A DNA stretch of 64,000 nucleotides from a virus (lineage: Duplodnaviria; Caudoviricetes): the IMG/VR virus record IMGVR_UViG_3300031993_000004, positions 192,001-256,000 of that record; one strand, given 5' to 3'. This document shows positions 7,206 through 54,680 of this stretch, piece by piece. The notes below the pieces were generated by a model. It did no database searches and was not told the origin of the DNA. It saw only the letters and a program-made list of their open reading frames with translations. Each line of letters begins with the position of its first letter. Within the stretch, counting starts at the first letter, position 1. The position numbers and the translations under genes are program-made.

Positions 7206-8162
7206 ATGGCAATCAAGGAGTTTGTCCCGAGACTGCAAAGACCTGAGGCTGGGAATAAGTTTTACATTACGAAAGGCGCAGGAGGATATTCCAACGCAAT
7301 TAAGGGAAAACCGACTGATTCAAAGTGCGACGTTCTGTCAAACTGTGTCGGCTATGCAGATGGTCGAGGAAATGAAATCAATAATGACCCGACAATGTCA
7401 TTCCTCAAACCGGTGAATGCTGAACGGTTCTATGACGTTGCAATCGAACAAGGTCATACTATCGAACAAACCCCATCTCTGGGCGCGATAATGGTATGGC
7501 AGAAAGGTCCGACACGTGAACCAACAGGAAAGGATGGTGCCGGCCACGTTGCTGTCGTCGAACAGATCATCAATGAAAACGAGGTCATCACATCAGAATC
7601 TGGTTACAACTGCCAGAATCCGTTCTGGACACAGACCAGAAAGAAGGGTGAAGGTAACTGGGGCGCTGGACCTGATTACAAATTCCTCGGATTCATTCGG
7701 AACCCTGCGATCTCGGCGTCTACAAAACCTGTCAACGATACAACAAAGGTCGACGAGCCTTATCTCGTCAGACTTGAGAAGGGTACTGGTATTTATTCCA
7801 TAACCGGCGTTGTCGTTGTTCAGACTGGCACGATCACGGTATCTACAAAGTATACCATCGTCGAAGAACTTACGGTCAAAGATACGAAATATGGTAAACT
7901 GAAGTCTGGGGCAGGATGGGTTGTTCTTGCCAAGCTGGAGGTGCCCGTATCTGCGACTGTTATGCGTGAAGGAGACTCTGGTGTAGACGTGCTCAAACTG
8001 CAAAAGAAACTGATTGAGCTCGGATACCTGTGTCCCGATTGTGCAACGTCGAAGTACGACACATTTACGTTGTGTGCTGTCACAGGTTATCAGCTTAAGA
8101 CAGGTCTGCTTGTTGACGGCGTATGCGGTCCGGCAACGCAAAAATCTTTGAATCTGAACTAA
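7206..8162 (+). CDS. Endolysin: CHAP domain + SH3-like cell-wall-binding domain + PG_binding_1 domain
   Basis: SNCVGYA...GAIMVW...AGHVAVVE...SES (CHAP Cys/His/Glu); YTIVEE...YGKLKSGAGWV; GDSGVDVLKLQKKLIELGY...VDGVCGPAT. Confidence 0.9.
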   Translation: MAIKEFVPRLQRPEAGNKFYITKGAGGYSNAIKGKPTDSKCDVLSNCVGYADGRGNEINNDPTMSFLKPVNAERFYDVAIEQGHTIEQTPSLGAIMVWQKGPTREPTGKDGAGHVAVVEQIINENEVITSESGYNCQNPFWTQTRKKGEGNWGAGPDYKFLGFIRNPAISASTKPVNDTTKVDEPYLVRLEKGTGIYSITGVVVVQTGTITVSTKYTIVEELTVKDTKYGKLKSGAGWVVLAKLEVPVSATVMREGDSGVDVLKLQKKLIELGYLCPDCATSKYDTFTLCAVTGYQLKTGLLVDGVCGPATQKSLNLN

Positions 8163-43600: not shown

Positions 43601-43670
43601 ATTGGTCGACAAAAATTTAATCTATTTTAATAGAATAGATGGAATCAATAGAAAGGAGGTTGCATATTCT

Positions 43671-44414
43671 ATGCGCAACACTCGTTGTCCTTTTTGTGGA
43701 AAGATATTTAACGATAAGCACAAGTATTGTGATCATATTGCGTTGAAACATAATGAACAGATACCTGACGATCAACAACCTCTTGAGTTTGCTTATTCAT
43801 TATTGGTGCATAAACCAGTTGGCCGAATCTGTGTGATTTGTAGAAAGAATCCTGTCAGATTTAATAATGAGACATTGAAGTATGACAGACTTTGTGACAA
43901 TCCTACATGTAAAGATGAATATGTCAAACTCATGAAAGCCCGAATGGTTCGTGTACATGGGCAAGAGCATCTTCTCAATGATGCAGATATGCAACGTAAA
44001 ATGATTTACAATCATCACAATGCAAAAGACTTTGTATGGGACGATGAACACAAGTTCCGGATCATAGGAACTTACGAAGAAGACTTCTTGAGAAAGTTGA
44101 AATCAATTGGGTGGTCTCCAAATGACATTATCGCACCATCTCCAAACAATTACTGGTACAAATGGAAAGATGGTACAACGCATTTGTACATCCCAGATTT
44201 CTATATTCCATCGCTCGCTCTGGAAGTTGAAATCAAGGAATCGGATAATCAACATCCGAGAATGGCACATGAGCGTGAGATGGAAGCGCTCAAAGACAAA
44301 CGTCTTGCTGACGAAGAAAAGAAGACGAATATCCATTACATCAAGATTGTTGACAAAAAATATGATGATTTCATGCGAGACTATGTTAAGTCCGATGAAA
44401 ATAAACCTGATTAA
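43671..44414 (+). CDS. Zn-finger + PD-(D/E)xK (TnsA-like) endonuclease
   Basis: CPFC...H...H, CVIC...CDNPTC; HLYIPDFYIPSLALEVEIK; AGGAGG RBS before ATG 43671. Confidence 0.75.
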   Translation: MRNTRCPFCGKIFNDKHKYCDHIALKHNEQIPDDQQPLEFAYSLLVHKPVGRICVICRKNPVRFNNETLKYDRLCDNPTCKDEYVKLMKARMVRVHGQEHLLNDADMQRKMIYNHHNAKDFVWDDEHKFRIIGTYEEDFLRKLKSIGWSPNDIIAPSPNNYWYKWKDGTTHLYIPDFYIPSLALEVEIKESDNQHPRMAHEREMEALKDKRLADEEKKTNIHYIKIVDKKYDDFMRDYVKSDENKPD

Positions 44415-45312: not shown

Positions 45313-47541
45313 ATGGCGAAGCCGAGAAAAACTGAACTTCCGGATGAAGTTTTGAAATGGATGAATCCGGATATGGAAGATGAGACTACGTCGGGTAAGG
45401 GAGACGACGAAGATCTCGAAGTAACTCCCGAAGGCGTCGGTGCTGGAGGATTCACAAATTCTCCATTGGTGACATATACGAAGCTGTCACCATTCAAGAA
45501 CTCACCGCGTAATCAACCGATCTCGAAGATCATCATTCATCACATGGCAGGCGTTGCATCAGTCGAATCATTCGGCGAGATTGTTACCGCTCCTGGTCGT
45601 GAAATGAGTGCAAACTATGCTATCGGTAACGATGGACGCATTGGTTTGTATTGCTCGGAAGAAGACAGATGCTGGTGCTCATCTTCTGCATGGGTTGACC
45701 ACCGCGGAATTGCAATTGAAGTATCAAACTCCAAACTTGGAGAACCTTGGCCAATCTCCAAGAAAGCATGGGATTCTATGATCAATCTGTGTGCCGATAT
45801 CTGCAAACGTAACAACATTCCGAAGCTGGTTTACACTGGTGACAAAACAGGTTCACTATGCTTCCACAGATGGTTTGCTGCGACAGGTTGTGTTCCGATT
45901 GATACAACCGAATTGCTCACCGAAAAGGGCTGGCAATATCTGCGCGATCTGAAGATCGGTGATAAGGTCGCAACAGTAACTACGAAAAACTTCTGCATCA
46001 AGTTCAATCCGATCGAGAACATGGTCACTCCGAAGTTGGATACGGTATACCATGTCGGTGATATGACGATCACACGTGATCACAGAGTTCTGAATCAGGA
46101 TCCTGGAAAAATGGACGGATACAACCTGAAGCAATATCAGCTGATTTGCGATGGTCCATTCTCCGTTCCGTGCGCAGGTTACACTACATTCCCGGGACTG
46201 GACATCTCTTCTTCCGAGATGGTCTTCCTGTTGGAAATGCAGCGCATCGGAAATCTGTCTGACGATGGGAAAACTCTCGAGTTCTCATACATCACAGAAA
46301 ATCAAGTTGGATACTTTGATACCCTGGTGAAGAACTGTGGGTTTGAATGCACCCGCACGCAGGATGATCTCGGACCGGTGGTTTTCCGCGTCACATCAAT
46401 TCGCGCATTGTCTCTGGTGAATCGTTTCTTGTCTGGAAAAGACTTCACTTGGGAATGGCTGAAGATGAATCCGACACAGTTCTCGTATTTCATCTACAAA
46501 GTCACGACGCATGAAAATGGTACATGGAACAGACATTATCATTCTGCGTCGAATGTCAATGTTGATGTCGTTCAGGCAATCTGCGCATTGAACGAGCGTG
46601 CCACGAAGTACGATCCAATCGATGGCATCCTGTACGTGTCAGACACTGGAAGCCGCAGTGTGAATCCACGGGAATCTACAGCACAGGAAAACATCATGGT
46701 TTCCTGTGTTACCGTTAAAGGTGAATGCTTCCTGATGCGCCAGAACGGAGTTACCACTTTGACCGGCAACTGTCCTGGTGAATATATCTTCTCCCGCGCA
46801 CAGCAGATCTGTGATGAAGTTAATGCAAAACTTGAGGAGCTTCGTGATGAAGAAATGCAAGAAGCTCTGAAAGAGCAAGCTAAACAGAAGGAAACTGCAA
46901 AACAGGAAGAAACACTTCCAGAAGTCGTTCCGGTTAAACTGGCAACGGGATGCATGGTTAAGTTCAATTCGCCGGATGCGACGTATTACACAGGTGCTCC
47001 GATTCCTGCATGGGTGAAGAATCAGAATTGGTATGTCACAAGCGTGATTGGTTCACGGGTTGTTCTCGGACGAAATGAATCCAATAACGCAAATATCAAT
47101 TCCCCGGTTGATGCAAAGTATCTGACAGTGATTGAAAATGCTGCCGCACAGCCGGAAAAGAAGTTTGTTCCTTATACGAAGAAATTCATACAGGGAACAA
47201 AAATCTATGATATCAGCACCAAGATCGCAATTAAGATGATCACCGTTGCCGGCGTGTACACCATCGTCGATGAGGCTGTCACTGATGGTGTGAAGTACGG
47301 CAAACTGAAATCTGGTGCAGGCTGGGTGGTTTTGTCAGCAAATCCTAACATCACCAGCAATATCATCTGTGAAGGTGACACCGTATCGGTTATCAAGCCG
47401 ATTACTTACGATGGGAAGGCATTCAATGTCTATGAGAAGTCATACAAGGTTCTCCGTGTCGCCGGAAACCGTGTCGTGATTTCTTCTGATGGAAAGAATG
47501 TCACCGCAGCTGTACAAGCATCGAATCTGATCAAACTTTAA
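45313..47541 (+). CDS. Intein-containing N-acetylmuramoyl-L-alanine amidase (Amidase_2) endolysin with SH3-like C-terminal domains
   Basis: IIIHHMAG, SANYAIG, IAIEVSN, HRWFAATG-[intein]-CPG; C-terminal YGKLKSGAGWV SH3-like module. Confidence 0.9.
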   Translation: MAKPRKTELPDEVLKWMNPDMEDETTSGKGDDEDLEVTPEGVGAGGFTNSPLVTYTKLSPFKNSPRNQPISKIIIHHMAGVASVESFGEIVTAPGREMSANYAIGNDGRIGLYCSEEDRCWCSSSAWVDHRGIAIEVSNSKLGEPWPISKKAWDSMINLCADICKRNNIPKLVYTGDKTGSLCFHRWFAATGCVPIDTTELLTEKGWQYLRDLKIGDKVATVTTKNFCIKFNPIENMVTPKLDTVYHVGDMTITRDHRVLNQDPGKMDGYNLKQYQLICDGPFSVPCAGYTTFPGLDISSSEMVFLLEMQRIGNLSDDGKTLEFSYITENQVGYFDTLVKNCGFECTRTQDDLGPVVFRVTSIRALSLVNRFLSGKDFTWEWLKMNPTQFSYFIYKVTTHENGTWNRHYHSASNVNVDVVQAICALNERATKYDPIDGILYVSDTGSRSVNPRESTAQENIMVSCVTVKGECFLMRQNGVTTLTGNCPGEYIFSRAQQICDEVNAKLEELRDEEMQEALKEQAKQKETAKQEETLPEVVPVKLATGCMVKFNSPDATYYTGAPIPAWVKNQNWYVTSVIGSRVVLGRNESNNANINSPVDAKYLTVIENAAAQPEKKFVPYTKKFIQGTKIYDISTKIAIKMITVAGVYTIVDEAVTDGVKYGKLKSGAGWVVLSANPNITSNIICEGDTVSVIKPITYDGKAFNVYEKSYKVLRVAGNRVVISSDGKNVTAAVQASNLIKL
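45889..46770 (+). mobile_element. Class 1 intein (294 aa) with degenerate LAGLIDADG-like region
   Basis: Block A C-VPIDTTELLTEKGW..L.DLKIGDKV; block B TRDHRV; blocks F/G VSCVTV...FLMRQNG..TLTGN followed by Cys+1. Confidence 0.9.
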
Positions 47542-48531: not shown

Positions 48532-48779
48532 TTTCTCCTCTTACGAGGTTGCGGCGACGCTAAGCTTCTGCGCCGCCTAAATCAAATTTTATTATGAATA
48601 TTGGAAGTTGTTTTTACACTTCTTCCTTTATTCATAATAATAATATATATATGAAATATTAGATTTTCCGCAGAATTATTCCTTTCTGGATACACATATT
48701 ATTTGCCCGATGACCCCGGGACTATCTAACAATCCATATTGGGTTTATCATGAAAATTCAGGAAAGTGAGGAATTGTTT

Positions 48780-50630
48780 ATGGCTGAGCTTATCCGTTCA
48801 AATCCCCCGAAGCCTATGAATTATTCCACGGATTCGGTATTATTTGATGTCAGATATTACCGGCAATCCAGTCAAAATAAAGAGTGCTTTGAGGTTATAA
48901 CTTGGAATCCTTTGACACGTCAATTGGAAGTGAACTATGAAGAACCGATCATTGATATCTGGTTCTTGAAACCGGAATTCCGCACAAACACATATCAGAT
49001 TGCACAGGTGAACAAAGATCAATGCTATCCATTCTATTGCAAACCGTCTCAGGTTTCACGAGTAATTGCCCAGGAGATTGGTGGAGAATGGGAAGACTGG
49101 TATATGACCAATCGAGACCAATATGACAGAAATGATGTGACGAAACATATGTGTGAATGCCCATGGGTATTTGCAGCAGACTTTGAACCAACTGTGCACT
49201 TCCGCCTTAGATGGTTTGAGCAATATGGAAAGACCATCGATCTGACAAAGGTCAGTACAGCACAACTTGATATTGAGACCGATGTCATTGACAGACCCGC
49301 TGATCCGAAAGATATCTGGAATTCTCCCAATCCGATCAACGCAGTGTCATTGATACTCCCTCATGTCAAGATTGCAGTATTGTTTGCATTGGGTCCGCGT
49401 CCGAAACATAAGATTGATCAGAAGTTTTGGCCGTATCTGGAGATGCAAGAAAAGGAATACAAGTGGCTGTGCGAACATCAGGATGAATTTAAACGCATGA
49501 TGCGTGAAGATGATCCTGACAACATGAAATGGTTGGAAGGATTCGATATCCGATTGCACATCTTTGAATATGATGATGAAATCAAAATGATCAAAACCGT
49601 ATTTGATTACATCAACAAATATCGTCCGATGTTCTTGGAATCATGGAACGCGAAGTTTGACCATCCGAGACTGTGGCACCGCATTGAATATCTTGGATAT
49701 GATCCGAAAGATTTCATCATCCCGAAAGATTTCAAGACGAACAGAATCTTCTATCAGGAAGATCAGTCTGGCAACTTCCAGATGAAAAACTCTCGAGATT
49801 GGTTCCAGACATCAACGTACACAATCTATATCTGCCAAATGAGATTGTTTGCGGCAATTCGGAAGTCACAACAAGAACGCCGTTCATATTCGTTGAATTC
49901 TGTCGGCAAAGATATGTGCAACATTGTGAAATTGACAGATACGAAATCCGGATCATTCCGCACGTTTGCATACACAGACTATCTGAAGTTCCTGCTATAT
50001 AACTTCCGTGATACGGTTGTTCAATATGCAATCGAGCACACGACAAACGATTGTCGTACGTTGGTATCACGTTCATTCAACTTTGCGACGATATATTCCA
50101 AGTGTTTCCAAGAGACACACATCGTACGAAATGCGCGTGAGTATTATTACCGCAAATTTTCGAATACGGTACAAGCGTGTCGTTTGATTGTTGACAGAGA
50201 TCTCGATACTGCATTCAAAGGTGCATTCGTTGCGCCGCCTGAAAAGAATGCACCGACTGGTTTGATCTTAAATGGTAAGAACCACAATAACATCATATTC
50301 GGTGCATTGGATGCTGATGCCGCATCCTACTATCCATCCACAAAAATGGGTATGAACATGGATCCAATGTCCTTGCTGTACAAATGTATCATTCCAAACA
50401 GTGTATTTGAAACGGGCGAGTGTGTAAACCGTTCATTGAATCAGGTATACGAATGGAATGACTCGAAGAACAAGCCACACCCAGAAGATATGTCGGGACC
50501 AATTATCAATGCATTCAAGAACAGAAATGTGTGTGCATTGATGAATAACTGGTTTGGTCTTCCAACGATTACTGAGTACATTGAATACTTGGATGCATGT
50601 GATACAAAAATAACAGAAAGAAGGATGTAA
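48780..50630 (+). CDS. Family B DNA polymerase, N-terminal part (3'-5' exonuclease + palm motif A); split polymerase
   Basis: LDIETD (ExoI), SWNAKFD (ExoII), SYSLNSV, YNFRD (ExoIII), FKGAFV, DAASYYPS (motif A); no KxxxNSxYG or YxDTDS seen. Confidence 0.85.
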   Translation: MAELIRSNPPKPMNYSTDSVLFDVRYYRQSSQNKECFEVITWNPLTRQLEVNYEEPIIDIWFLKPEFRTNTYQIAQVNKDQCYPFYCKPSQVSRVIAQEIGGEWEDWYMTNRDQYDRNDVTKHMCECPWVFAADFEPTVHFRLRWFEQYGKTIDLTKVSTAQLDIETDVIDRPADPKDIWNSPNPINAVSLILPHVKIAVLFALGPRPKHKIDQKFWPYLEMQEKEYKWLCEHQDEFKRMMREDDPDNMKWLEGFDIRLHIFEYDDEIKMIKTVFDYINKYRPMFLESWNAKFDHPRLWHRIEYLGYDPKDFIIPKDFKTNRIFYQEDQSGNFQMKNSRDWFQTSTYTIYICQMRLFAAIRKSQQERRSYSLNSVGKDMCNIVKLTDTKSGSFRTFAYTDYLKFLLYNFRDTVVQYAIEHTTNDCRTLVSRSFNFATIYSKCFQETHIVRNAREYYYRKFSNTVQACRLIVDRDLDTAFKGAFVAPPEKNAPTGLILNGKNHNNIIFGALDADAASYYPSTKMGMNMDPMSLLYKCIIPNSVFETGECVNRSLNQVYEWNDSKNKPHPEDMSGPIINAFKNRNVCALMNNWFGLPTITEYIEYLDACDTKITERRM

Positions 50631-50633
50631 CCT

Positions 50634-52910
50634 ATGTCAGTTATGTGCTTTGATGATGATATTCCGTCGATCAATCTTGGAGAAACTTCCAAACGTTACA
50701 TGTCATTATATGGTATGAATATCATATTGCAACGTGCGATTCCTATGTTGACTGATGGGTTGAAACCGATCCATCGCCGTATCATCTGGGCAATCAAACG
50801 CGCATCAAACGGTGATCAGATGAAGGTTGCTGAGATTCAGGGTGATACGATGAAGTTCTCTCCGCACTCTGAACTCGGAACTCGTTTCATTGTTGCTGGA
50901 TTGGCACAGCCGTTTGCCAATAATGTCCCGTTGTTGGCGTCTTCATCTGGATATGGTACACCGACTTGTGGTGATGATGTTGCTGCTGCCAGATATTGGA
51001 GTGCGGGTATATCCAAATTCGCGATGGAAGTATTCTTCAAAGAATTTGACCCGAATGTAAACATGAAAGACAATTATGATGGGAAATATCGGGAACCGAT
51101 TACGTTTCCATCGAAGTTTCCAACGATTCTGTTGAACGGCTCCCATGGTATTGCATACTCCATGTCATCTGATGTGCTCCCATACAATATCAATGAAGTC
51201 GCAGACGCAACAATCAAGCTGCTGAAGAACCCGCAAGCAAAAGTAAACTTGATTCCAGATTCACCGACAGGTTGTGATGTGATTAAGCGTGACGACACAA
51301 CGTTCATCTTCCAGTCTTCATATGAAGTGGACAATGTTAACTATACAATCACGATTAAGAACACTCCGGTCGGTGAATATCTGACCGATATCGATAAGAA
51401 ACTTCGTGAGATCCAGTTGTCGGCAAATCCAATCAAAGAGATCATGTCTGCAGACAATGAATCCGATTTGATTGAAGGCGGTTTCCGGTATGTCATTCGT
51501 TGTAAACCATGCAACCTGTATCAGGTGATCAATACGTTATTCCGTCGCGTACCGGGATTCCGGATTACTGTGTCAACACGTAACTGCAGCGTAGTTGACG
51601 CGAATAACCAGGTGCAATATTACAATGAACGACAAATCCTTTTGTCATGGATTGCCAACCGTTTGATCGAAAAGCGTGCATGGTATCTGAGACGTCTCGT
51701 TCTGGTGTCTACAGAATACAATATGCTTGACGGCAAGCGTTTCATGTTGTCTCCTGAGAATTTGTCAAAGACCATTCGAGTATTCCGAAAGTGTGAGACT
51801 GAAGAAGAAATCATCCAATCGTTGGTTGATGCATATAATGGTAAAGTCTCAACATCACAAGCAAACTTTGTCTCTGGTCTGAAGATGTCAAAACTGACAA
51901 ACGGTGAGTACAAGAAAACAATTGCACGAATCGAAGAGATCTCCGAAGACATTACGAATTTGAAGGCAATCGTCAATGATCCGGAATGTGTTCGTGACAA
52001 AATCATTTCTGACATCAAAGATATCAGAAACAGATTCGGAAATCCGAGACGTTCAAAGATTCTGAACAATCAGGGTGGAGAGAATGTCAATATCGGAATC
52101 TGCCAGATCTTGACAGATGGAACGGTCTTATTCTCAGAGACAGAAAATCTGAACCATTTTGCATCAGATGTGACACCTATCGATGGTGATGAAGTGTGTC
52201 TCATTGATCAATATGGTAAATCGTTATGGGTTAATGTCAACCAAGTCCCGCATGACACACCTATCGCATTGACGGCTATCGGGAAAGAACCGATGGGTGC
52301 GTGCATCGCAGTAATTCCCCGGTCGTCACGATCAATTGTGATGCTGTCGAATCATGGCCGCATTAAACTGATGCCGATCGAAAAGATCCCGTCCAACCAG
52401 TCCAGAAAAGCATTAATGCCTCTGAATGATGGTGAATACATCGTGTCGATTCTGAATGTTGATCAGAATTCTGAAGACCTGTTGGTATATACCTCGGATG
52501 GATATGGAAAACGATTCTCTGTATCTGATCTGAATTCTGTCAATTCTCCGGACGCGCAAGGTCAATTCATCGTGAAGGGGTATGAGGTTGCTGGAATATT
52601 TGCAGTAAGTTCCAGTAAACCGTTCATTTTCTATGCTACACGGCTGGGACGAGTTCGTTTGAACAATGCCCGCTTCCTGGTTACAGGAAAGAAATTTGCA
52701 GGAGTGAAGCCAATCATCAAGCTGTCGCAGCAGGATGATTTGGTATCCGTATTCTGCGCAGATAAAGATCAGAGTGTGACATTGTATCATGCGGATGGAC
52801 GGAGTTCCACTATCAATCTTGAATCATTGGATGTCGTCACAACAAATACCCCGCCGGCCAAACCGAAGCATGTTCCCGCAGTGAAAGTCATCAGAGCAAC
52901 ATTGTCATGA
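50634..52910 (+). CDS. Type IIA DNA topoisomerase subunit A (GyrA/ParC-like)
   Basis: RAIPMLTDGLKPIHRRI, SPHS, AAARY (catalytic Tyr), FPTILLNGSHGIA, FGNPRRSKI, C-terminal pinwheel-like repeats. Confidence 0.9.
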   Translation: MSVMCFDDDIPSINLGETSKRYMSLYGMNIILQRAIPMLTDGLKPIHRRIIWAIKRASNGDQMKVAEIQGDTMKFSPHSELGTRFIVAGLAQPFANNVPLLASSSGYGTPTCGDDVAAARYWSAGISKFAMEVFFKEFDPNVNMKDNYDGKYREPITFPSKFPTILLNGSHGIAYSMSSDVLPYNINEVADATIKLLKNPQAKVNLIPDSPTGCDVIKRDDTTFIFQSSYEVDNVNYTITIKNTPVGEYLTDIDKKLREIQLSANPIKEIMSADNESDLIEGGFRYVIRCKPCNLYQVINTLFRRVPGFRITVSTRNCSVVDANNQVQYYNERQILLSWIANRLIEKRAWYLRRLVLVSTEYNMLDGKRFMLSPENLSKTIRVFRKCETEEEIIQSLVDAYNGKVSTSQANFVSGLKMSKLTNGEYKKTIARIEEISEDITNLKAIVNDPECVRDKIISDIKDIRNRFGNPRRSKILNNQGGENVNIGICQILTDGTVLFSETENLNHFASDVTPIDGDEVCLIDQYGKSLWVNVNQVPHDTPIALTAIGKEPMGACIAVIPRSSRSIVMLSNHGRIKLMPIEKIPSNQSRKALMPLNDGEYIVSILNVDQNSEDLLVYTSDGYGKRFSVSDLNSVNSPDAQGQFIVKGYEVAGIFAVSSSKPFIFYATRLGRVRLNNARFLVTGKKFAGVKPIIKLSQQDDLVSVFCADKDQSVTLYHADGRSSTINLESLDVVTTNTPPAKPKHVPAVKVIRATLS

Positions 52911-52914
52911 AAGG

Positions 52915-53145
52915 ATGAGATCGATGAAATTGAAGGCCTTGCTTACGAAGAAGATTGTTTTGCCATCAAAGATTCAGAAGAAAGGTGGACACAAAGTTCT
53001 GACCAAAACCGAGGATTTCCGGCTGTATGCGATTCGTGATAAGAACGATGAGATTCTCGGTACAATACTTCTGACAGATGGACAGTTTGAAGTGTTAAAC
53101 AACGCCATCAATCCGGAAGGAATATTTGTCACGACAGGGAAGTGA
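52915..53145 (+). CDS. Small hypothetical protein
   Basis: 76-aa ORF filling the operon gap. Confidence 0.5.
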   Translation: MRSMKLKALLTKKIVLPSKIQKKGGHKVLTKTEDFRLYAIRDKNDEILGTILLTDGQFEVLNNAINPEGIFVTTGK

Positions 53146-53150
53146 GTTAA

Positions 53151-54680
53151 TTGTCATTCAAAGTGACAATTCGTGCGACGTCCATAACGGTGCAACCGGG
53201 AGAGGAAGCAATGCTCCCGTTAGCACCGTTATTGGATATGCATGAATACGAAAATGAATACCAGGAAACAACCAGTGTGTTGGGATACATGTATGATGAA
53301 GAGCATGACACATTGTATTTCCACAAGGGAGTTGATCTGGATTATCTGCGTCGTCTGTTGGGTGACGTTGAATTTGCATATGACAGATTTGACGAATACA
53401 AACAGATGAACTACCAGTTCGAAGAAGCTTTCTCTCCGCGTGATGATGACCAGCAGGACGTCATCGATTTCATTTCTGCCAAACCGCCATACCGAGATAA
53501 TATCGCTGAACCACAAATATTTGTGGTGAAAAGAGGTGGATTCGGCAAGACATATTGTGCTGGATATGGCATGGGCGTTCTCGGAATGAAAACGCTCATT
53601 ATCATGCACAGAGACACATTGCGCACGCAATGGATGAACTCATTGTACGATTTGAATGGATACCCATCATCTGCAGTGTATGAACTCACATCATCTGCTG
53701 AATTGGACGCCATTGCGCGGGGAGAACTTAAACTTGATTATGACGTGTATCTGATGACACATGCAACATTCCAAGCCGCGTGTAATCGGCTTCGAGATTG
53801 CGAGTTAATCAGAAACATCACGAAGAATCTGTACATCGGATTTAAGATTATTGATGAAGCCCATCTGTATTTCAAGGATACGCTGTTGATGGATTTTCTT
53901 TTCAATGTGAAACGGAATCTGTATCTGACAGCAACAGATGGCAGATCATCAAAAGACGAGAACGCAATTTTCCGTCATGCATTCTCAAAAGCAATCTTTT
54001 ACCGAAAGCAGTCAATAACTGGTGAGAAGCATCCATCTAAATGGGTTGAATATATCACGGTTGATATCGATACACATTGCAAACCAAACGTGTATAAATA
54101 TCGTGTGAACGGCGGTCGTGGAATGTCCGCAATCACGTATGGCAAATGGGTGATTCAATACGACAAAAAACAAACACACTTCAAAGTGTGTCGCGATATC
54201 ATCAAAGAAATCTATGCACAAGAACCTTCTGCAAAGGTTATTGTCTTCATGCCACTGATTGATCTGTGCACAGATTGTGCCTATTTTCTGAATATGGAAT
54301 TAAGTAATGACGAATCATTCGAGTATTCGCTTGACATCAAAACAGTCAATTCTCACAATTCCAAATCAGAAAATGATTACAATAAGCATCACGCTGATGT
54401 TATTGTAACGACGGTTCAATCGCTTGGTACCGGTCAGGATATTCATGGTATCACTGACATCATATGTTGTTCACCATTGGTTTCGAAGATCACAACGCAA
54501 CAGGTTCTGTGGCGTATTAGATATATCCCGAAACCTTGTCACTACTACGACATCGTAGACACATCTGTACCAGCTGACAGATACTGGTGGCAATCTCGTT
54601 CAAAGACATTGAAAGCAATGACAACGAAGTATACACACATCTCATGGAGCGAGGAGGTGACGAATAATGACACCGATTAA
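53151..54680 (+). CDS. Superfamily 2 helicase (UvsW/XPB-like)
   Basis: GGFGKT (Walker A), IIDEAH, LTAT, IVTTVQSLGTGQDI, QQVLWRIR. Confidence 0.85.
   Translation: MSFKVTIRATSITVQPGEEAMLPLAPLLDMHEYENEYQETTSVLGYMYDEEHDTLYFHKGVDLDYLRRLLGDVEFAYDRFDEYKQMNYQFEEAFSPRDDDQQDVIDFISAKPPYRDNIAEPQIFVVKRGGFGKTYCAGYGMGVLGMKTLIIMHRDTLRTQWMNSLYDLNGYPSSAVYELTSSAELDAIARGELKLDYDVYLMTHATFQAACNRLRDCELIRNITKNLYIGFKIIDEAHLYFKDTLLMDFLFNVKRNLYLTATDGRSSKDENAIFRHAFSKAIFYRKQSITGEKHPSKWVEYITVDIDTHCKPNVYKYRVNGGRGMSAITYGKWVIQYDKKQTHFKVCRDIIKEIYAQEPSAKVIVFMPLIDLCTDCAYFLNMELSNDESFEYSLDIKTVNSHNSKSENDYNKHHADVIVTTVQSLGTGQDIHGITDIICCSPLVSKITTQQVLWRIRYIPKPCHYYDIVDTSVPADRYWWQSRSKTLKAMTTKYTHISWSEEVTNNDTD

Follow-up and report, generated by a model that had tools for sequence, protein, structure and literature searches.

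Positions 192,001 to 256,000 of the virus record IMGVR_UViG_3300031993_000004 (Caudoviricetes), a stretch of 64,000 nucleotides that we refer to as the window, hold an endolysin gene (45313-47541, plus strand, as are all window features given below) whose 742-aa product is interrupted by an insert of 294 aa (45889-46770). Our main finding is that this insert is, as judged from family profiles and a modeled fold, a genuine intein: a HINT splicing domain in which a LAGLIDADG endonuclease-like domain is nested. It ends immediately before a cysteine predicted to serve both as the +1 splicing nucleophile and as the third zinc ligand of the Amidase_2 domain. The explanation that we hold to be very probable is that the intein homed into the lysin gene and removes itself by protein splicing, and that the copy in the window, its endonuclease apparently dead, is inherited vertically; no regulatory role is needed.

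Identity and insertion site of the insert

The limits of the intein, C193 to N486, are given by the translation, by 205 relatives, by the family profile and by the fold. A preliminary description of this DNA, made from the sequence alone, had proposed an intein at the same place, and its boundaries hold to the base: the insert begins with CVPIDTTELLTEKGW, ends with TLTGN and is followed by CPGEY, and the TRDH motif that it assigned to block B is present at residues 254-257. An exhaustive HMMER search with the insert as query gave 212 proteins, in which the insert typically lies about 150 residues into a lysin of 550 to 750 aa. The 205 full-length relatives among them were used to count end residues: 202 begin with Cys, all end in Gly-Asn, and the +1 position is occupied by Cys in 200, by Thr in four and by Ser in one. 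In an alignment of 124 intein sequences (A1), no row departs from C1, G14, H65, C273, R284, G293 or N294, and 123 rows have T62. Such conservation of the first Cys, the terminal Gly-Asn and the +1 Cys shows that the insert is not a chance one.

The identity of the insert rests on profile and structure evidence, not on single-sequence matches. Indeed, the insert alone had no sequence match in Pfam, NCBIfam, PHROG or the PDB (phmmer against the PDB returned noise only), and its single-sequence AlphaFold2 (AF2) fold reached a pLDDT of 34 only. With A1 supplied as the alignment, AF2 gave a model with a pLDDT of 96.7 and a pTM of 0.93, composed of a HINT domain and a LAGLIDADG endonuclease domain. 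The top Foldseek matches of this model are the TliVMA and PhoVMA inteins, PI-SceI and PI-PfuI (E 1.7e-10 to 3e-5); the hedgehog autoprocessing domain and the gp41-1 intein are also matched, and its central region matches, through the LAGLIDADG two-helix core, I-DmoI, I-SceI and I-Tsp061I as well as the PI-SceI endonuclease domain. When the A1 profile was compared with the PDB, all 10 matches at E <= 0.0013 were inteins or an intein-like domain (the AceL NrdHF intein 6zgq as the best, E 1.2e-7, the BIL domain, RecA mini-inteins and DnaX), with the DnaE and gp41-1 inteins matching at E values above this limit. Family profile, AF2 and Foldseek thus agree on an intein with a HINT and LAGLIDADG fold. 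As for domain searches of the lysin itself, Pfam recovers the Amidase_2 domain (56 bits), and the Hint and LAGLIDADG assignments, absent from Pfam for the insert, come from the family profile and the fold. Among the 124 family members, Pfam LAGLIDADG_3 (PF14528) is matched by 13, and Hint_2 and Intein_splicing by one each at E <= 0.01; in effect, standard domain annotation overlooks the family. Relatives of the insert outside lysins occur in a DNA polymerase A, at PNLQN/C (the slash marks the insertion point), and in the RNA polymerase Rpb2; in one polymerase, P0241, the Pfam Hint_2 match overlaps the stretch matched by the insert.

The N-terminal part of the HINT domain (45889-46182) holds block A with C193 and block B with T254-R-D-H257, position B:12 being V259; it is this part that aligns to the AceL NrdHF intein. 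The C-terminal part (46648-46770) holds block F, with Cys465 at F:4 and R476-Q477, and block G, with T484-G485-N486. The endonuclease-like domain lies between them, with approximate limits at 46183 and 46647 drawn from AF2 helices, Foldseek, PF14528 and motif columns. The same architecture, a HINT domain interrupted by a LAGLIDADG domain, is that of the VMA, PI-SceI and PI-PfuI inteins (7QSU, 7QSS, 7QST, 1VDE, 1DQ3), which are also alike in the N-terminal Cys, the T-x-x-H of block B, the terminal Asn, the +1 Cys and a conserved active-site insertion. The similarity is distant, with TM scores of 0.55 to 0.69 at the Foldseek E values given above and only 8 to 13% identity. Unlike these inteins, whose hosts are an ATPase or a polymerase, the insert resides in a cell-wall amidase, has Cys instead of Asp at F:4, Gly instead of the penultimate His and an invariant Arg-Gln in block F, escapes Pfam, and in the window copy has lost the catalytic Asp of motif 1 and carries an altered motif 2.

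Upstream of the insert, the N-extein (45451-45888) comprises the Amidase_2 catalytic domain up to G192, with H76 and H185 as predicted zinc ligands and E136 as predicted catalytic residue. Residues 48-193 match endolysin families in PHROGs (E down to 8e-41), and the Pfam Amidase_2 match covers residues 67-171 with 56.1 bits for a cut-off of 26 (60.3 bits in the genome-wide search). A profile of 71 N-exteins (A3) matches in the PDB PlyG 2l47 (E 9e-28), PlyL 1yb0, XlyA, AmpDh2, AmiD, AmpD and T7 lysozyme; phmmer against the PDB, with the N-extein or with an intein-free homologue, did not reach the amidase structures, and the homologue gave LysM matches only. In the profile alignments, the invariant H185 faces the second ligand His of PlyL and of T7 lysozyme, and the alignments end at PlyL K135 and T7 residue 129, one or two residues before the ligand Cys, if the ligands are, as we take them to be, H29/H129/C137 in PlyL and H17/H122/C130 in T7 lysozyme. 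The catalytic domain is thus that of the endolysins PlyL 1YB0, PlyG 2L47, XlyA 3HMB and T7 lysozyme 1LBA, its counterparts in the window being H76, E136, H185 and C487.

The insert lies between H185-x7 and C487-P-G. H76 and H185 are conserved, and once the intein is removed C487 stands at H185+8, so Cys487 (codon 46771-46773) would act as +1 nucleophile and also as third metal ligand; this dual role, put forward in the preliminary description, is borne out insofar as the insert directly precedes the Cys that aligns with the third ligand. Intein-free homologues (114 alleles) have an uninterrupted H-x7-C-P-G, lack exactly residues 193-486 and are otherwise colinear, and some relatives of the insert split a PlyL-type motif at the same bond (HQDWSGKY/CPHR). 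The window lysin differs from intein-free Amidase_2 endolysins in having its domain interrupted one residue before the ligand Cys, and in a fused acidic extension of 46 aa. Since C487 is the predicted third ligand, the mature zinc site would form only after splicing, and it is reasonable to infer that the unspliced precursor is inactive. The same intein family was found at two further Amidase_2 sites, IH/C after the first zinc-ligand His and AWH/C; some amidase domains hold two inteins of the family, and an Amidase_5 hydrolase has one at GH/TG (these additional sites concern P0123, P0124, P0195, P0229, P0233 and P0188 of the 212-protein search).

The course of events that we propose is that the intein entered the lysin gene of a lineage of gut phages of about 250 to 290 kb by homing into the zinc-ligand Cys codon of Amidase_2. 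After translation it would remove itself, most likely by standard protein splicing: a thioester would form at Cys193 and be transferred to Cys487, after which cyclization of Asn486 and formation of a peptide bond would ligate ...FHRWFAATG to CPGEY..., so that H76, H185 and C487 form the zinc site. The predicted junction peptide is WFAATGCPGEYIFSR, and only the spliced protein of 448 aa should be an active amidase.

Endonuclease decay and population pattern

The endonuclease motifs of the window copy are degenerate. Motif 1, VFLLEMQRIGN (46222-46254), has Ile312 in place of the catalytic Asp, and motif 2, YFIYKVTTHENG (46486-46521), has Glu401-Asn402 in place of Asp-Gly. The helix ends of the family have the consensus Q-A-D-G-H and Y-D-G-C, with Asp in 101 (motif 1) and 99 (motif 2) of the 124 sequences; those of the window read Q-R-I-G-N and H-E-N-G, so that the acidic residue of each LAGLIDADG helix is not preserved, and its nuclease is presumably dead. 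The motif-1 Asp is absent from the window lysin (P0001) and its 63 closest homologues (P0003-P0064; 48 to 76% identical), while both Asp residues are still in place in the group that follows (P0065-P0103 and a few more). Further shortening is seen in a group of 612-aa lysins, in which half of the endonuclease domain is lost and a 223-aa intein is left, and in P0104 and P0120, which have mini-inteins of 145 aa.

Selection was assessed by codon-level Nei-Gojobori dN/dS between endonuclease-dead alleles; pairs below about 85% identity were saturated (dS > 1.3), and we relied on the pairs P0005/P0006 and P0046/P0049. In the former, dN/dS is 0.038 in the N-terminal HINT part (dS 0.65) and 0.105 in the endonuclease-like domain (dS 0.69), and it is 0.109 in the amidase N-extein (dS 0.44); in the latter it is 0.041 in the endonuclease-like domain (dS 0.20). 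Splicing and endonuclease regions are therefore both under strong purifying selection. For the splicing domain this is expected if the lysin depends on splicing, because the domain must then stay functional.

Whether lysin genes exist with and without the intein depended on the length range searched. All 120 best matches of 'near' length carried the insert, but the 408-aa minimum had hidden shorter proteins, and the candidate explanation of an intein fixed in the lineage was rejected. A search among 'shorter' proteins gave 2,242 matches; the best 120 of these included 119 new proteins, 114 of which are intein-free alleles of 363 to 407 aa. Their N-exteins are 57 to 73% identical to that of P0001, and many lie on contigs of 245 to 287 kb. 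One of them, P0272 on contig L013, has a locus syntenic with the window (a 1022-aa gene, small open reading frames (ORFs), the lysin, DNA polymerase B and topoisomerase).

A FastTree phylogeny of the exteins only (231 alleles, about 380 columns) requires 37 changes, an approximate number, between presence and absence of the intein, compared with a mean of 77 and a minimum of 65 for shuffled labels. The 37 inteins with intact endonuclease motifs are scattered singly over this tree, usually as well-supported sisters of intein-free alleles. Those with a dead endonuclease form one near-pure clade of 63, P0001 included, within which a single intein-free allele (P0272) is nested. Pairs with and without the intein have exteins up to 98.7% identical. 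The clearest example is that of L009, which carries the intein, and L012, which does not: their DNA is 98.9% identical over 3.4 kb upstream and 97.8% identical downstream, and the roughly 24 nt that adjoin the insertion point on the 5' side are strongly divergent, a tract such as co-conversion in the course of homing would leave. The intein-free target in L012 reads TTCACAAGT before and TGCCCAGGA after the insertion point.

Distances point the same way. Among endonuclease-intact copies the mean distance is 0.29 for inteins and 0.39 for exteins, and 18 pairs combine an intein distance below 0.1 with an extein distance above 0.25; in the endonuclease-dead clade, intein and extein distances are correlated (Pearson 0.755). 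In a separate observation, P0068 (L008 1183-3213) and P0076 (L009 3001-5028) have near-identical inteins (dS 0.011) and diverged C-exteins (dS 0.38, dN 0.15), which suggests a recent transfer of the intein or a mosaic recombination of the wall-binding region. Because near-identical exteins occur with and without intein, because the intact copies are scattered singly and because of the co-conversion-like tract, we regard the endonuclease-intact copies as apparently active homing elements, still moving among lysin genes. The copy of the window lineage appears to be fixed, immobile and vertically inherited, and no second copy of the family was found in the 277,583-bp record. In the window phage and about 60 related alleles, then, loss of the catalytic Asp would have immobilized an element that is since passed on vertically and kept competent for splicing by selection on the lysin, while sister alleles with intact motifs would still be invading empty lysin genes. 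The degenerate endonuclease and retained, non-mobile intein of the preliminary description find support both in the loss of the motif Asp and in the place of the window copy inside the near-pure clade.

A close parallel is found in mycobacteriophage inteins (Kelley et al. 2016, PMC5050341), which are alike in spreading by homing, in splicing efficiently with a penultimate Gly, and in existing in full-length, degenerate and mini forms. Their hosts are TerL, DNA methylases, TOPRIM, portal and similar proteins, and the word 'lysin' is absent from that paper; 224 mycobacteriophage Lysin A genes have been reported without inteins (PMC3314691).

Splicing chemistry and alternative readings

Several observations weigh against the reading of a homed, self-splicing intein that decays in the window lineage. 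We infer splicing of the endolysin precursor from sequence and fold. Position F:4 is Cys in all 124 sequences of A1, where the usual class 1 residue is Asp, the penultimate position (G:6) is Gly, never His, in all 124, and His is not among the common residues at the three columns of A1 examined for F:13; with these features, the splicing chemistry may differ from the textbook path. The number of intein gains and losses is approximate, given a FastTree tree of about 380 columns and lysin genes that recombine. Moreover, purifying selection acts on the dead endonuclease domain no less strongly than on the amidase domain (dN/dS 0.04-0.10), and full-length inteins of 290 to 298 aa persist in the endonuclease-dead clade down to about 48% identity, although erosion or shrinkage would be expected if the module were selfish and purely in decay. 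Simple decay would not predict such constraint on a nuclease domain that lacks its catalytic Asp; the domain may be structurally coupled to the splicing domain, may still bind DNA or may have taken on a new role.

As for the chemistry, Asp at F:4, His at F:13 and the penultimate His are common helpers in class 1 inteins, but not obligatory ones. A mycobacteriophage intein with a penultimate Gly splices completely, and its G316H mutation slowed splicing (PMC5050341). A possible, if doubtful, alternative is that the element is the same and the route another: Cys465, with His257 and Thr484, would act as a branch-point nucleophile of class 3 type, and Cys193 would be auxiliary or would form a first thioester relayed to Cys465. 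Class 3 inteins have no N-terminal nucleophile and use Trp(B:12)-Cys(F:4)-Thr(G:5) and a Cys-His-Thr triad (PMC7891396, PMC5050341, PMC7664689). The invariant F:4 Cys is shared with class 3 AceL NrdHF and DnaB inteins (PMC7664689, PMC2807308), and so is the G:5 Thr in the window and its clade; the 21 residues from this Cys to the terminal Asn match the spacing in the MchDnaB1 class 3 intein (C124, T143; PMC7664689). The best sequence-profile match in the PDB is itself a class 3 split intein, AceL NrdHF (6ZGQ; PMC7891396), an 'MCT' intein of phage or metagenome origin that likewise has a non-Trp hydrophobic residue at B:12, namely Met, and no His at F:13 or G:6; in the family B:12 is Met in 58 of 124 sequences and otherwise includes Val, as in the window, and Ile. 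Yet this match spans only the N-terminal half, Trp does not occur at B:12, only 39 of 124 sequences have Thr at G:5 (70 have Val), and Cys1 is invariant in all 124 even though class 3 is defined by the absence of an N-terminal nucleophile. The family also differs from the AceL intein in being contiguous, not split, and in having an endonuclease domain, and its block F has an Arg-Gln pair that varies little or not at all. The nucleophilic attacks may thus follow the order of either route, with splicing as the most likely overall outcome.

A regulatory role had been suggested in the preliminary description, in the form of a lysis timer or a redox or metal switch. Our data do not support it, nor do they refute it: intein-free alleles are abundant in syntenic sister phages, and endonuclease-intact copies are polymorphic between near-identical alleles, as would be seen with an element that homes selfishly and not with a regulator that the phage requires. 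A narrower version, which we consider unlikely, is that a conditional intein was domesticated in the endonuclease-dead clade, where it would gate activation of the lysin, with zinc loading, thiol oxidation or a slow rate delaying the amidase and helping to time lysis. Retention across nearly the whole clade (one intein-free allele among about 64) and low dN/dS over the entire intein, the dead domain included, speak for it, but both are to be expected wherever an intein sits in an essential protein, since inteins are seldom deleted precisely. It is chemically plausible, since the active site has three conserved cysteines within it or next to it (C1, F:4 and +1), and three reports (PMC7360933, PMC6195587, PMC8557812) describe reversible inhibition of mycobacterial DnaB intein splicing by zinc and oxidants. 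Against it, the 114 intein-free alleles, P0272 in L013 among them, work without any gate, P0272 in a phage syntenic with the window, and the intact form has the behavior of a parasite. In phages, besides, it is the holins that time lysis. That the endonuclease domain in particular was kept for a new role, with splicing made zinc- or thiol-sensitive or slow, perhaps through the block F Cys, seems to us rather improbable; since the +1 nucleophile is the zinc ligand, appearance of the amidase would in that case be gated post-translationally.

By far the least credible alternative is that the insert does not splice at all, being a degenerate HINT-like domain that stays in the mature lysin, or that the lysin gene is dead. 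The lack of any Pfam or NCBIfam match, of a penultimate His and of an F:4 Asp would fit, but the splicing residues are invariant across hundreds of alleles with dN/dS about 0.07, the insert would leave 294 residues between the zinc ligands H185 and C487, and this is the only Amidase_2 gene of a genome rated 100% complete. We therefore retain the reading of an intein that homed into the lysin and splices itself out.

Genomic setting and meaning of the family

The record of 277,583 bp is that of a gut phage. Besides the lack of another Amidase_2 gene, no Amidase_3 or GH25 gene was found in it, and a megablast with 20 kb of the window revealed no related record among 50,697 phage records. A CHAP-domain protein (PF05257, 39 bits) at 7206-8162, adjoining ORFs of 2167 and 2551 aa, is a second candidate peptidoglycan hydrolase, perhaps virion-associated. 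Downstream of the lysin, 48750-54680 encodes a family-B-type DNA polymerase, a topoisomerase II and a helicase; on account of these genes the setting is a replication module, not a recognizable holin-lysin cassette, and no holin was identified near the lysin in the window. The 270-aa product of an ORF two genes upstream of the lysin (43602-44414) is possibly a homing endonuclease of the free-standing type: it matches phrog_15137, a family of phage endonucleases (E 6e-38), and has a weak match to an HNH endonuclease family.

The lysin precursor starts with an acidic stretch of 46 residues (45313-45450, ...SGKGDDEDLE...). Related phages encode its homologue (alignment A4) in an ORF of its own, of 42 to 49 aa, that directly precedes the lysin (L004 2243-2371, L006 2845-2994); in the window and in L010 and L011 it is joined in frame to the lysin. 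The C-extein (46771-47538) brings the end of the amidase (CPGEY...), a Glu/Lys-rich linker and cell-wall-binding repeats of the form ...YYTG..IP.WVK...WYV..., modules that it shares with intein-free phage endolysins (alignment A2). Among annotated proteins, the exteins are closest to endolysins of Faecalibacterium, Ruminococcus and Clostridium gut phages (35 to 52% identity), which have the same C-terminal wall-binding repeats; the homologue in the Clostridium phage NatCom_42228 is annotated as an endolysin and adjoins a holin.

To our knowledge, inteins have been described almost only in proteins of replication, repair, nucleotide metabolism and packaging. Our literature searches found no description of inteins in endolysins, amidases, lysins or peptidoglycan hydrolases; what they returned concerned intein tags for purification, or inteins that the same phages carry in other genes. 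The earlier remark that inteins are rare in lysins thus holds for the literature searched but not for metagenomes, in which hundreds of lysin alleles carry the intein. The element is of a known kind, and what is new is its class of host and its divergent subfamily.

A large intein family that Pfam does not see lives in phage cell-wall hydrolases, in Amidase_2 at three sites beside the catalytic His and Cys, and in Amidase_5. For annotation, this means that lysins of 600 to 750 aa with an unexplained 'domain' of 150 to 300 aa are likely intein precursors, and for endolysin engineering, that the mature enzyme would be the spliced product and not that of the ORF. The invariant F:4 Cys, together with Cys1, poses a mechanistic question that is cheap to address by mutagenesis. 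This one gene family displays several stages of a homing cycle: apparent active invasion, death of the endonuclease, partial deletion, mini-intein and one apparent loss. It also sets side by side, within one lysin family and with an atypical block F, a population of endonuclease-intact inteins that appear mobile and an endonuclease-dead clade in which the intein seems to be fixed.

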